From a virus (lineage: Duplodnaviria > Heunggongvirae > Uroviricota > Caudoviricetes): 7,590 bases of DNA. The DNA lies in the IMG/VR virus record IMGVR_UViG_2740892230_000005. One strand, 5' to 3'. Position 1 is the stretch's first letter, and every line of letters begins with the position of its first letter. The position numbers are program-made. Shown here one piece after another: positions 3,001 to 7,590 of this stretch.

Positions 3001-6000
3001 TCATTATTTGTTGCGAATATCAAAAAGACAGATAGCCAGGACGAGAAAGAAAAGCGAAAAAGCAATACGAATTGAGATGCAGATAGCCGAAGGGTTTATT
3101 GACGGATGTTTGTCTGTGCTGGGGGTAAGACTGGAGATGGACGACTGGCTGCTAAAAAAGTAAAAAATGATTAGTGCGGTCCGCAAAAAGTATGTCAGTA
3201 TGTTAAGAGTGGTTACTTCGCCACACAGCTTAAACCCGCCGCGAGCGGGTTTTTTTATGGCTGAAATCGGTCCAGTACAGTAAACGTGCTGGTGGCGGTG
3301 AATACCTGTCTTTCAGCTTGCTGGCTTTTTCGACAAGAGTTATTGGTGTGTCACGTTAACCGGAAAAGGGAAAAAGACATGCTAAAACAGCAGGATATGA
3401 CAGAAACCGCCAGAGTGGTGTTTAATGAATTAAGCGTTACCGACCCGGCGACAGTCGGGGAGATTGCGCAGAATACTTACCTTTCACGCGAACGCTGTCA
3501 GTTAATACTGACCCAACTATCAGCGGGGTGAACTGGAAAAGCCACATCACCAACTGGTCAGCACATACAGTGAGCTGAACCGNNNNNNNNNNGTGTGCAT
3601 GTTGTGGAAAGCCCGCTGATGATCCCCACCACCTGATAGGTCACGGTCAGGGTGGAATGGGAACAAAAGCGCATGACCTCTTTGTGTTGCCTTTGTGCAG
3701 AAAGCATCACGACGAGCTGCATGCGGATACCGTGGCATTTGAAGAGAAGTATGGCTCTCAGCTGGAGCTGATATTTCGTTTTATCGATCGTGCGCTGGCA
3801 ATTGGCGTATTGGCGTAAGTGGAGAACGAGCATGAACCTTGAAGCCTTACCAAAATATTACTCCCCAAAATCTCCAAAATTGAGCGATGACGCACCGGCG
3901 ACAGGCTCAGGTGGTTTAACGATTACGGATGTGATGGCTGCGCAGGGGATGGTGCAGTCGAAAGCACCGCTTGGGTTTGCCTTATTCCTGGCAAAAGTTG
4001 GTGTTCAGGATCCTCAATTTGCGATTGAAGGTCTGCTCAATTACGCGATGGCACTGGATAACCCGACATTGAACAAATTGAGTGAAGAAACCCGGTTACA
4101 GATCATCCCTTACCTTGTGAATTTTGCCTTTGCTGATTATTCCAGGTCTGCGGCAAGTAAGGCTCGCTGTGAGCATTGTGCTGGTACTGGATTTCATAAT
4201 GTATTGCGCGAAGTGGTGAAACACTCCAGAAGCGGGGAATCTGTTATCAAGGAAGAGTGGGTGAAGGAACTATGTCAGCATTGTCATGGTAAGGGAGAAG
4301 TCAGCACAGCGTGCAGAGGGTGTAAGGGTAAAGGTATTGTCCTGGATGAAAAAAGGACCCGGCTTCATGGCACGCCTGTTTATAAGATTTGTGGGCGTTG
4401 CAATGGAAACCGGTTTAGCCGTTTACCAACCACACTGGCGCGGCATCATGTCCAGAAGCTGGTACCAGACCTGACGGATTATCAGTGGTACAAAGGATAT
4501 GCAGATGTCATTGATAAACTGGTTACAAAGTGCTGGCAGGAAGAAGCATATGCAGAGATACAATTGAGAAATGTGACAAGATAAATGGTTTTCGCCGAAG
4601 ATGACGACATGATGCTTGCATTTTTCAAAAAATATGGATAAGATTTTCCCAACGATGGGCTTTGTATGTCTACCGTTGATAAGATTTAAGAACCCGCCAC
4701 TGAGCGGGTTTTTTTGTGCCAGATGTCTCATGAAACTATGAAATGGATTGGTGCGTTAAACATTTTTTCTTATTATCTTTTAGATTTTGGAGAGATGGTT
4801 AACGTCTGTATTCCAGAAACTCGATGATTATTTAATAAATTAGTTTCAATGATGCTTCTAGGTTATGACTGTAATGAAAAAGGTATTAATAGCAGCGATA
4901 GGTTTTTGTTTAGTTGGTTGTGCAGGTATGAAATTACCTGAGTATTCGCAAGTTAAAGCAAGTCCGTATTATACAGATTGCCGTGCGTTTGCCATGGATG
5001 TTTATAAAAATGATGGATACAGCAAAATTGCGAAAACTACTATCCTTAGCATGGATGATGTGAAGACTAGATATATTGTGACAGGGTGTGTAGTTGCTAT
5101 GGGGAAAAACACTGTAGAGGAAATCAAAGCTGATCTCTCTGCTAAAGGGAGTTCTTTTGGGCTTATCAGTGGAGCTTGTTCTAGTGCGGCATGTCGGGTT
5201 GATGTAGAGCAGCAAATGAACGCTTATGTACTTGGTAGTTATTATGCTGCAAATAAAAAATTCCCGGATAAAATGAAAGCAGAGTTTTAAGTAAACCTTG
5301 TTTTCGATTATATGTCGAAGATAAATGTTAGTAACGGCATAATAAGTAAATATATAGCTGTGATAGCAACCCGCCACTGAGCGGGTTTTTTGTACCTGTA
5401 AACTTGGTGCAGTACAGTAAACACGCTGGTGGTCGTGAATACTGACTTTTTATCTTGCTGGCTTTTTAGACAAGAGTTATTGGTATGTCATGTTAACCAG
5501 AAGGGAAAAAGACATGATAAAACAGCAAGATATGACAGAAACCGCCGCCGCAGTCCTTCATTTCTTACCTGCTGACAAGTGGGTAACGCCACGCATGATG
5601 ACGAGAACTACCGGAGTAAGCGAAGCCCAGTGCCAGTTAATACTGACTCAGTTAGTTCTGGCGGGTCTGGCGAAGGATAACGGCGGGTACGGGAATAAAT
5701 TCAGACGCTGCCAGTAATGGCGGTTTCCTGCTGTGAAAATGGGCGGCTGGTGGGTGTTGGTAGCACCTGCCAGCCATTCGCTCATGCTTACTGGTCACAA
5801 GCGAACCACGGCCCACTGCTTTAGCGCAAAAGCAGAGTGAGCCTACCAGAGTTACGCTTACTGATCCATGAAAAATACTGTAAAAATAAACAGTGTTGAT
5901 TTAATCAACGCTGATTGCCTGCATTTTATTCAGTCCCTGCCTGATGATTCCATTGACCTGATTGTTACCGATCCGCCTTACTTCAAGGTGAAACCCAACG

Positions 6001-7590
6001 GTTGGGACAATCAGTGGAAAGGGGATGAAGATTACCTTAAGTGGCTGGACCACTGTCTGGCCCAGTTCTGGCGGGTGTTAAAACCTGCCGGAAGCCTTTA
6101 CCTGTTCTGTGGGCATCGCCTGGCATCTGATATTGAGATCATGATGCGTGAACGTTTCAACGTGCTTAACCATATCATCTGGGCGAAGCCGTCCGGACGT
6201 TGGAATGGGTGTAATAAAGAAAGTCTGCGCGCATATTTTCCTGCCACAGAGCGCGTTCTGTTTGCTGAACATTACCAGGGGCCATATCGCGGCAAAAGTG
6301 ACGGCTATGCGGCAAAAGAAAGGGCACTCAAACAGCACATAATGGCACCGCTGATATCGTATTTCAGGGATGCTCGTGCCGAACTGGGTATAACGGCAAA
6401 ACAAATTGCCGAAGCCACAGGTAAGAAAAATATGGTTTCCCACTGGTTTGGTGCCAGTCAGTGGCAGTTGCCGAATGAGGCTGACTATCGGAAGTTACAG
6501 GCACTGTTTTCCCGTATAGCGGCAGAGAAGTTTCAGGAACAACAACTGGAACAACCACACCACCAGCTGGTGGCATCTTATGATTCACTGAATCGCAAAT
6601 ATTCTGAATTGCTGGATGAGTTTAAATCTCTCCGGCGCTATTTCTCCGTATCAGTCTCCGTGCCTTATACCGATGTCTGGATGCATAAACCCGTTCAGTT
6701 CTACCCGGGTAAACATCCGTGTGAGAAACCGGCGGATATGCTCAGGCAAATAATCAATGCCAGTAGTCGACCTGGTGATCTGGTTGCTGATTTTTTTATG
6801 GGATCCGGTTCCACAATAAAAGCAGCAATGGCGCTGGGGCGTCGGGCCTTAGGTGTTGAGCTTGAGTCAGAGCGGTTTAACCAGACAGTGAAAGAGATAA
6901 ACGAGCTGGTGGGGAAATAATCTGGTGGCCACGCAGGTGGCCTTTTTATTTCCATTACACAGCACCCGCATCTGCGAGGTGGGGTTATGAAATCCATGGA
7001 TAAGTTAACAACGGGTGTCGCCTATGGCACCTCAGCAGGTAGTGCCGGTTACTGGTTTTTACAGCTGCTCGATAAAGTCACGCCCTCACAGTGGGCAGCA
7101 ATAGGTGTGCTGGGTAGCCTGGTATTTGGCCTGCTGACGTACCTGACAAACCTTTATTTCAAGATTAAAGAAGATAAGCGCAAGGCTGCGAGAGGTGAAT
7201 AATGCCTCCATCATTACGAAAAGCAGTTGCTGCTGCTATTGGTGGCGGAGCAATTGCTATAGCATCAGTGTTAATCACTGGCCCAAGTGGTGACGATGGC
7301 CTGGAAGGTGTCAGCTACANNNNNNNNNNCGGAGCAATTGCTACAGCATCAGTGTTAATCACTGGCCCAAGTGGTAACGATGGTCTGGAAGGTGTCAGCT
7401 ACATACCATACAAAGATATCGTTGGCGTATGGACTGTATGTCACGGACACACCGGAAAAGACATCATGCCCGGTAAAACGTATACCGAAGCAGAGTGCAA
7501 AGCCCTCCTGAATAAAGACCTTGCCACTGTCGCCAGGCAAATTAACCCGTATATCGAAGTCGATATACCGGAAACAACGCGCGGCGCTCT

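Follow-up and report, generated by a model that had tools for sequence, protein, structure and literature searches.

We analysed a 7590-nucleotide (nt) stretch of DNA from a virus of the class Caudoviricetes (IMG/VR record IMGVR_UViG_2740892230_000005), hereafter the window. An earlier reading of the sequence alone, which we call the original prediction, had pointed to an orphan beta-class DNA methyltransferase gene behind a structured leader. The gene, its leader RNA and a small upstream open reading frame (ORF) are arranged as follows:

5514..5717, plus strand: 67-amino-acid (aa) stand-alone winged-helix protein (phrog_331, function unknown, E 1e-24)
5707..5733, plus strand: terminator-like hairpin GCTGCCA-GTAA-TGGCGG (stem-loop 5707-5723) followed by a U-rich tract, with the stop codon of the small ORF in the loop (read in sequence)
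5729..5867, plus strand: conserved structured leader RNA of ~140 nt (fold z-score, conservation, covariation)
5739-5743/5781-5785 (H1), 5745-5775 (P2), 5777-5805 (H3) and 5810-5843 (H4), plus strand: leader helices (model)
5793-5805 with 5855-5866, plus strand: long-range helix H6, an alternative to H3 that ends 1 nt before the AUG
5868..6920, plus strand: predicted M.EcoGII-family beta-class N6-adenine DNA methyltransferase, 350 aa (PF01555; M.EcoGII alignment)

The methyltransferase ORF begins at 5868, the first possible start after the upstream stop, and is the longest reading of that frame. Its product is identical to RefSeq protein WP_000799653.1 and matches the N6_N4_Mtase family (Pfam accession PF01555) over residues 29-341 (E 2.4e-42, 145.8 bits against a cut-off of 26.7). 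Motif IV (DPPY, residues 35-38, nt 5970-5981) lies N-terminal to motif I (FxGxG, here FMGSG, residues 310-314, nt 6795-6809). The order is thus that of a beta-class amino-methyltransferase, as originally predicted.

The protein aligns end to end with M.EcoGII. The two share 282 of 348 positions (~81%), with 66 differences and 3 gap columns, although the M.EcoGII reference was taken from a machine-read PDF (PMC11551740 Table S1) and a few mismatches may be reading errors. The original prediction had called for a comparison of the target-recognition domain with that of an enzyme of known specificity; 60 of its 78 positions (77%) are identical to those of the non-specific M.EcoGII and 18 differ. 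Identity is 89% to the reconstructed ancestor Anc291, 71% to SUPREM, 64% to PhiOS31_p25 of Serratia phage OS31 and 53% to ARM81ld_p56 of Aeromonas phage phiARM81ld. M.EcoGII and M.EcoGI (E. coli O104:H4 C227-11) are also prophage orphans of 349-350 aa, with the same start position and the same order of DPPY, target-recognition domain and FxGxG.

M.EcoGI and M.EcoGII are 95% identical to each other and methylate adenine in any sequence context; both are unexpressed in the lysogen, and their over-expression slows growth (PMC5778455). The family is described as 'very large' and as lying within an apparently well-defined prophage (PMC5778455). The same source places M.EcoGII in a cryptic prophage, without expression, and lists single-stranded DNA, RNA (in vitro) and RNA:DNA hybrids among its substrates (PMC5778455). 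PhiOS31_p25 and ARM81ld_p56 protect DNA from many enzymes of unrelated specificity that are sensitive to N6-methyladenine (m6A) (PMC7556043). Enzymes found experimentally to be non-specific span 53-81% identity to the window protein. Because all tested relatives in this range are non-specific, the most parsimonious reading is that the product is a non-specific N6-adenine methyltransferase, which would leave diffuse m6A and no motif.

Of the alternatives originally offered, 'N6A or N4C', the amino-methyltransferase assignment stands and N4C becomes improbable, as the M.EcoGII family points to N6A. A discrete motif is not expected either. The M.EcoGII-family enzymes tested experimentally (M.EcoGI, M.EcoGII, PhiOS31_p25 and ARM81ld_p56) methylate adenine in essentially any context, so both a motif-finding test and its proposed refutation, the absence of a new motif, were mis-specified; methylome tests should seek diffuse adenine methylation instead.

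The gene itself is an ordinary, intact member of the known and characterised M.EcoGII family. It adds little as an enzyme, being another allele in a family whose M.EcoGII is already a reagent in m6A footprinting. Relative to M.EcoGII, the window protein is a different allele whose activity is assigned by homology, and the published M.EcoGII work comes without a description of the leader or the small ORF. Both features are present at the closest M.EcoGII-type locus that we fetched (L005, from E. albertii, ~95% identical to M.EcoGII). The Protein Data Bank holds no solved M.EcoGII structure; the best matches there are two unnamed methyltransferases (9c3u and 8urk, E 3e-24), followed by RsrI.

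A conserved leader RNA

The original prediction had noted a structured 150-nt leader, and the folding energy of 5718-5867 bears this out: -61.2 kcal/mol against -50.4 +/- 3.4 kcal/mol in dinucleotide-preserving shuffles (z = -3.2, all 200 shuffles being less stable). The missing Shine-Dalgarno (SD) sequence and the leader had been presented as local oddities. Both turn out to be conserved over the enzyme family in several phage lineages.

We identified 80 methyltransferase loci in a one-genome-per-species scan, with 61-93% identity and a range from Escherichia to Xenorhabdus, Proteus and Morganella. Over these loci the sequence just 5' of the methyltransferase start is strikingly conserved, as are wobble positions in the first codons of the gene. 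The upstream spacer has a fixed length, namely 147-154 nt in Enterobacteriaceae, ~142 nt in the Proteus, Providencia and Morganella loci and, for Xenorhabdus and Photorhabdus, 85-101 nt. Aligned with one another, 43 distinct leaders share 52 invariant columns and show visible compensatory changes.

A model of three hairpins (P2, H3 and H4) accounts for these leaders with 82% paired cells. Under this model 12 pairs of alignment A2 are changed on both sides, compared with 7.2 +/- 1.3 in shuffles, and the covariation score is 0.140 versus 0.084 (0 of 500 shuffles as high; slid-register controls at most 0.089). One H3 pair occurs as C-G, A-U, U-A and U-G. In alignment A3, double changes affect 27 of 35 pairs, where 13-18 are expected on model-made alignments (13.2 for A3 itself). 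Covariation scores reach 0.173-0.273 against 0.085-0.109 on model-made alignments, the highest being that of A4 (0.273 versus 0.109, slid controls at most 0.098). The default RNAalifold consensus missed H3 and returned partial helices only, and a manual model with pair counts was used instead. G-U pairs are frequent in the leader, which indicates that the folded strand is the sense strand.

Two properties of these counts weigh against the model: alignments A3 and A4 were fitted to a covariance model and so lean towards it, and the counts are of sequences rather than of independent events. We regard the structure as very likely real.

The covariance model R1 places the leader at the expected position in 49 Enterobacterales loci (E < 1e-17). 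It also detects the leader in N15, phiKO2 (E 4.5e-14), OS31 (E 1e-11), VHML (E 2e-10), YDC107_1, Val-yong3 and phiARM81ld. In N15 all three hairpins are preserved with different sequences. We further scanned IMG/VR with a degenerate pattern built from leader positions only and found 120 matching loci. A methyltransferase ORF (40-90% identity) lies downstream in 115 of them and starts exactly 23 nt after the match in 110. One of the five exceptions is cut by a contig end, and two others were not hits when rescanned with R1. That 115 of 120 matches precede such an ORF argues that the leader is specific to M.EcoGII-type enzymes. As judged from these comparisons, the leader is a conserved, covarying RNA tied to this methyltransferase family across several phage lineages.

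The terminator-like hairpin at 5707-5733 has equivalents with compensatory changes across loci and genera (L002-L081, alignment A1). Loci that lack the small ORF (L016, L017, N15 and phiKO2) carry a canonical tR'-type terminator in its place, directly before the leader.

The leader is apparently an uncatalogued RNA and is the new part of the finding. No Rfam 15 family matched it at E <= 1 over the whole window, and a search of 5690-5900 alone gave only noise (E 3-10, wrong strand). SAM/SAH riboswitches, C4, AgvB, AsxR, STnc100 and ribozymes were considered as identities and found no Rfam 15 match. A tRNA or tRNA-like element, as found downstream of Q in Stx phages, was likewise set aside, as ARAGORN finds no tRNA. 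The anti-sRNAs (antagonists of small RNAs) and Pas small RNAs of enterohaemorrhagic E. coli prophages are short and none is described upstream of a methyltransferase gene; AgvB and AsxR are convergent and lie 3' of morons. We therefore set these RNAs aside as well. We also rejected an upstream ORF within the leader (AUG at 5739, 33 codons), which has no SD and whose frame is broken in homologues by 1-nt indels in the P2 loop. A literature search found no report of an RNA motif upstream of phage methyltransferases or of the N15 and phiKO2 late leaders, though the motif may still be published.

The start codon and the small upstream ORF

The methyltransferase start lacks an SD, as originally predicted. 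The best anti-SD duplex upstream of the AUG at 5868 (20 nt upstream searched) has -2.4 kcal/mol at -22, which is the wrong spacing, whereas 24 of 28 genes in the same prophage form a duplex of -4.3 kcal/mol or better. An SD is absent at nearly all of ~70 homologous loci. In six Xenorhabdus loci (L067, L074 and L076-L079) the methyltransferase apparently starts from a different AUG behind the SD-like sequence GAGAGGAAAAAAGCG.

The segment GGUCACAAGCGAA (5793-5805) has two possible partners. It pairs upstream with UUCGCUCAUG to form H3, or downstream with CGCUUACUGAUC (5855-5866) to form H6. H6 is compatible with H1 (AUGGG/CUCAU) and mutually exclusive with H3. Eight of its ten pairs are changed on both sides (one, for example, as A-U 40, G-C 15 and G-U 5), and these counts are unbiased by model fitting because the H6 columns are unpaired in the covariance model. 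H1 shows pair-preserving one-sided changes only. The predicted minimum free energy structure uses H1 and H6 in the window, in the M.EcoGII-type locus L005, in one Salmonella locus and in one Proteus locus; opening the start region costs 5-9 kcal/mol in these four Enterobacterales leaders. In OS31 the H6-equivalent helix contains the AUG itself. The region 3' of the AUG is A-rich and predicted to be unpaired.

A conserved GATC precedes the AUG. We rejected Dam/GATC control, as at the Mu mom promoter, since H6 pairing explains this site and it is absent in N15 and phiKO2.

The leaders of E. coli rpsA and of the MS2 maturation gene are also SD-less, with consecutive hairpins before the AUG and long-range pairing that can close the start. 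In the MS2 maturation gene, long-range pairing restricts translation to nascent RNA. Neither leader has a sequence relationship to the phage leader, and the analogy may serve as a lead for the mechanism only.

The 67-aa ORF lies ~85-154 nt upstream of the methyltransferase in ~60 of the 80 species-level loci. It is carried by 56 phage records, and in those listed with both coordinates (for example phiP27, SfV and 1720a-02) it is ~150 nt upstream. The protein has no Pfam match above threshold, with only weak similarity to DprA_WH, TrmB and MarR. Its AlphaFold2 model has a mean confidence (pLDDT) of 86.5 and the H-H-H-E-E topology of a minimal winged helix. Over its full length the fold is most similar to Zalpha (TM-score 0.82), eS25, PefI and the RNA-binding winged-helix domain of SelB, all with weak E values. 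These are generic winged-helix matches, and as predicted folds they are equally compatible with DNA and RNA binding.

N15-like phages carry a 75-aa winged-helix protein, gp51, just upstream of the late promoter (N15, L163 2006-2233; phiKO2, L165 1003-1230). N15 gp51 aligns weakly with the 67-aa family (hhalign probability 72%, 24% identity, a shared MTE motif) and may be a distant, relocated homologue. Also in N15 (L163, NC_001901), methyltransferase homology and the leader end both point to an ATG at 2501 (record position 41387), 234 nt upstream of the annotated start of gene 52 (L163 2735). The annotated protein is therefore probably N-terminally truncated, and this start is among the annotations that the analysis corrects.

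A different small ORF occurs in more distant relatives. In phiARM81ld a Com-like zinc-ribbon ORF (L162 2362-2577; PF10122, 27.9 bits against a cut-off of 22.9) overlaps the methyltransferase start and stands in place of the winged-helix ORF. In Val-yong3 a 38-aa CxxC...CxxC ORF (L167 1362-1478) lies between leader and methyltransferase; it is annotated as 'DNA-directed RNA polymerase subunit P', probably a mis-annotation. OS31 has no winged-helix ORF annotated directly upstream of its methyltransferase. The methyltransferases of OS31 and phiARM81ld are homologous to that of the window, lie directly upstream of a holin and share its leader by covariance model.

In outline, the window module resembles com-mom of phage Mu. 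We infer a common plan of a toxic broad-spectrum late DNA modifier with a small upstream ORF, a start region that RNA structure may occlude and silence in the lysogen (PMC3299994, PMC12707154). In Mu, Com activates translation of the toxic mom, and Com homologues accompany alpha-class non-specific methyltransferases of Mu-like prophages (PMC3299994). An EcoSal review pairs Mom with M.EcoGII as 'silent in lysogens and toxic' (PMC12707154). The components differ: Mom is an acetamido-adenine modifier and Com a zinc ribbon that overlaps mom, whereas the small protein of the window is a winged helix encoded 150 nt upstream, and the leader is much larger and multi-hairpin. The window module is not a com-mom member, because it has no Com (PF10122) upstream of or overlapping the modifier gene; its small ORF encodes a winged helix without cysteine pairs. 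A PF10122-type Com appears only in the distant relatives phiARM81ld and, by cysteine pattern, Val-yong3. Hia5 and M.HaeV of Mu-like prophages likewise combine phage carriage, nearly non-specific adenine methylation, an anti-restriction niche and a small regulator partner; unlike the window enzyme, they are alpha-class (reversed motif order), unrelated in sequence, located at the mom position and served by a Com homologue (PMC3299994).

Late-operon setting, proposed mechanism and alternatives

The methyltransferase gene lies between a late antiterminator gene and lysis genes, among the following features:

3832..4584, plus strand: late antiterminator Q, 250 aa in RefSeq (longest ORF from 3790; PF03589 Antiterm, E 1.3e-53; 'antitermination protein' in L001)
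4616-4621 and 4639-4644, plus strand: candidate late promoter pR' (TTGCAT, 17-nt spacer, TAAGAT; read by eye)
4691..4715, plus strand: tR' intrinsic terminator AACCCGCCACTGAGCGGGTTTTTTT (read in sequence; missed by the scan)
4865..5290, plus strand: 141-aa lipoprotein-like ORF, a putative moron (phrog_4748, function unknown)
5368..5391, plus strand: second copy of the tR' terminator (scan; duplication visible in alignment A6)
6927..6951, plus strand: intrinsic terminator in the methyltransferase/holin gap (GGCCAC-GCAG-GTGGCC followed by TTTTTATTT; scan)
6987..7202, plus strand: S21-type holin (PF04971, E 2e-35; essD in identical genomes)
from 7202, plus strand: start of an RrrD-type endolysin, broken by an N gap at 7320 (rrrD in identical genomes)

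L001 is the identical prophage in a complete genome (strain APEC E18005), examined in a 20-kb context. Its order is KilA-N, DUF968, Q, 141-aa hypothetical, 67-aa hypothetical, methyltransferase, EssD holin, RrrD lysozyme, Rz, terminase and head genes. The original prediction had placed the methyltransferase between Q and the lysis genes, and that position is confirmed. Gene order, with Q upstream and holin and endolysin downstream, strongly suggests late, Q-dependent expression. Analogy makes the pR' assignment plausible: lambda has pR'-tR', and a late promoter and terminator are annotated in N15 and phiKO2. The terminator scan reported only the second tR' copy, at 5368; weak Rfam matches to Trp and Leu leaders at 4647-4717 reflect the tR' hairpin. 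Promoter-like sites between tR' and the methyltransferase number 4, compared with 6.2 in shuffles, and an internal promoter was rejected for this lack of excess over chance. Three terminator-like hairpins separate the candidate pR' from the methyltransferase, which is consistent with silence in the lysogen.

The 141-aa ORF has no SD and no Pfam or NCBIfam match. It is low in GC and flanked by two copies of the same terminator, AACCCGCCACTGAGCGGGTTTTTT, and so looks like a moron inserted just after tR'.

The order of methyltransferase then holin recurs in cdtI, mEp460, Ayreon, N15, phiKO2, OS31, phiARM81ld, VHML and Val-yong3. In OS31, phiARM81ld, VHML, Val-yong3, YDC107_1 and phiO18P the gene lies just before or inside the lysis cassette (inside it in phiO18P), and in phiP27 tRNA and stx2e genes intervene between methyltransferase and holin. 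Like M.EcoGII, the window gene is thus an orphan of a temperate phage or prophage that adjoins lysis genes. N15 and phiKO2 have a minimal version, annotated as late promoter, terminator, methyltransferase, terminator and holin. A terminator equivalent to that at 6927-6951 is annotated in Ayreon, SfV, N15 and phiKO2.

The original prediction had found no restriction enzyme gene in the window, and we likewise find no endonuclease gene there. None is annotated in the 20-kb context of L001 either, nor next to the methyltransferase in more than ten phage genomes. The neighbours are the winged-helix ORF and the holin rather than the adjacent cognate endonuclease of a Type II restriction-modification system.

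T4 Dam, P1 Dmt and VT2 Dam (PF02086/PF05869) are also orphan phage adenine methyltransferases, thought to serve anti-restriction or regulation. They are GATC-specific, belong to another fold class and family, and are encoded in the early region. One such gene is present in the early region of L001 (4231-4884, 'phage N-6-adenine-methyltransferase', 217 aa), which suggests that one phage carries two unrelated adenine methyltransferases for different times.

We consider it probable that a lambdoid prophage carries the M.EcoGII-family enzyme as promoter-proximal cargo in its Q-dependent late operon. In the lysogen, transcripts from the late promoter would stop at the terminators and the methyltransferase would stay silent. 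Upon induction, Q-modified RNA polymerase would read through them, and the enzyme would methylate replicating phage DNA ahead of packaging, at adenines in any context. In the next host, type I, II and III restriction that is sensitive to m6A would then be blunted, with no need for matching specificity or a partner endonuclease. Anti-restriction by methylation of progeny DNA, which the original prediction had put forward, is also what the literature proposes for the M.EcoGII family (PMC5778455, PMC12707154).

Less certainly, the combination of a toxic enzyme and an SD-less AUG would leave translation to be set by the leader. We hypothesize a two-state leader that limits or times translation. 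One fold contains H3 and leaves the start region unpaired; the other, predicted to be more stable, contains H1 and H6, with the 12 nt immediately 5' of the AUG base-paired. Translation would be kept low, or would occur only on transcripts that are nascent or activated. A kinetic trigger is conceivable (nascent late transcripts), as is a trans factor: the co-conserved winged-helix protein, a protein like Com, or the methyltransferase itself if it acts on its own RNA. The modulator may be the adjacent winged-helix protein or, among the Aeromonas and Vibrio relatives, the zinc ribbon that resembles Com. That the leader gates translation is a tentative proposal, which we rate slightly below even. 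Similarly provisional, and just short of probable, is the broader view that it represents an undescribed cis-regulatory RNA family, a two-state switch gating SD-independent translation of M.EcoGII-type enzymes in temperate phages of Enterobacterales, Vibrionales and Aeromonadales.

The leader may matter more than the enzyme, as the same folded RNA precedes a toxic enzyme in phages from several bacterial orders. It would add a new phage cis-regulatory RNA family and would offer a concrete way to test how lysogens are spared the harm of a non-specific methyltransferase and how its dose is set in lytic growth. It could also explain why native expression of M.EcoGII-type genes is hard to detect.

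Several observations weigh against these proposals. The winged-helix ORF is missing from about a quarter of the loci that retain the leader, so the protein is not an obligatory activator. The start-occluding helix is not universal, and the N15 start opens for only 0.5 kcal/mol. An SD-like sequence is present in some Xenorhabdus loci and in VHML. The leader of the Aeromonas and Vibrio phages lies ahead of the Com-like ORF and not between that ORF and the methyltransferase. The pR' hexamers are weak and score below the promoter-scan threshold, the -35 matching at only 3 of 6 positions. Expression, methylation and timing for this allele are read from homologues and gene order. Finally, modification by M.EcoGII lowers plasmid transformation by 4-5 orders of magnitude even in non-restricting E. 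coli (PMC5778455), which suggests that very heavy methylation could be costly; it would also expose DNA to m6A-dependent type IV systems.

Some of these points bear on a doubtful but possible alternative to gating, in which the leader acts in RNA stability or processing, as a transcription element just after tR', or as the source of a released small RNA, and the SD-less start is a site of constitutively weak, S1-dependent initiation on the A-rich start region. The leader persists beside the SD-like sequence of VHML and precedes a different ORF in Aeromonas and Vibrio phages, and the region after the AUG is predicted to be unpaired. Moreover, it always starts right after a terminator-like hairpin, and no part is more widely conserved than its 5' hairpin domain, which is retained even in the shortened Xenorhabdus and Photorhabdus leaders. 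Against this, H6 covaries and its 3' strand adjoins or includes the start codon, the first-codon wobble positions are conserved, and in the detected hits outside the shortened leaders the RNA ends at the start codon of the next ORF.

Other alternatives concern the enzyme. Site specificity is typical of PF01555 proteins, whose solved relatives include RsrI, MboII, CcrM and PvuII, and with 18 of 78 target-recognition positions differing from M.EcoGII the window enzyme might be a sequence-specific orphan, N6A or N4C, that protects only against restriction enzymes sharing its motif. We judge this very improbable, given that tested relatives at 53-81% identity and reconstructed ancestors at 71-89% are all non-specific for adenine, and that DPPY and the family activity indicate N6A. 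A non-specific enzyme could instead have another main role, such as RNA methylation, perturbation of host replication, repair or transcription, or tuning of packaging or lysis timing. The activity of M.EcoGII on single-stranded DNA, RNA and RNA:DNA hybrids (PMC5778455) fits such a role, as do the loss of transformability of heavily methylated DNA and the constant joining of the gene to the lysis cassette. It is nonetheless unlikely: a gene at the front of the late operon is well placed for DNA modification before packaging, and the literature favours anti-restriction. Least probable of all, and only barely credible, is a decaying, functionless relic of a cryptic prophage, for which one could cite the description of M.EcoGII as unexpressed on a cryptic prophage (PMC5778455) and a truncated second copy in the window (3503-3582). 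The ORF is intact and identical in many genomes; it is 98-99% identical in phages whose complete genomes are deposited, among them Ayreon, mEp460, cdtI and 569R4; and gene, leader and position are conserved across bacterial orders.

The source stretch and its relatives

The window contains seven runs of 10 N, at 111, 919, 1335, 1993, 2530, 3583 and 7320. The flanks of these runs duplicate each other; for example, the same 29 aa of a DUF968 protein lie on either side of a gap. Rather than one natural sequence, the window is a scaffold in which short contigs, apparently of several similar prophages, have been joined. At least two lambdoid prophages are mixed in it, and it holds Q genes of two families (2768-3163, PF06530; 3790-4584, PF03589).

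The methyltransferase region is safe from this mixing, because 3593-7319 is free of N gaps and many complete E. coli chromosomes match 5400-7300 at 100% identity. DNA of this region was found in 838 of 5426 complete E. coli genomes (about 1 in 6) and in phages cdtI, mEp460, Ayreon and SfV. The region is 98-99% identical to phages Ayreon, vB_EcoS-569R4, cdtI and mEp460.

A second, diverged copy of the small winged-helix ORF lies at 3286-3582, after the PF06530-type Q and a tR'-like terminator. At ~3531 it runs into the fragment QRGELEKPHHQLVSTYSELN (frame 3 of 3503-3582), which equals M.EcoGII residues ~222-241. This match suggests that the genome has another allele of the M.EcoGII type, which either bears an internal deletion or was mis-joined during assembly.

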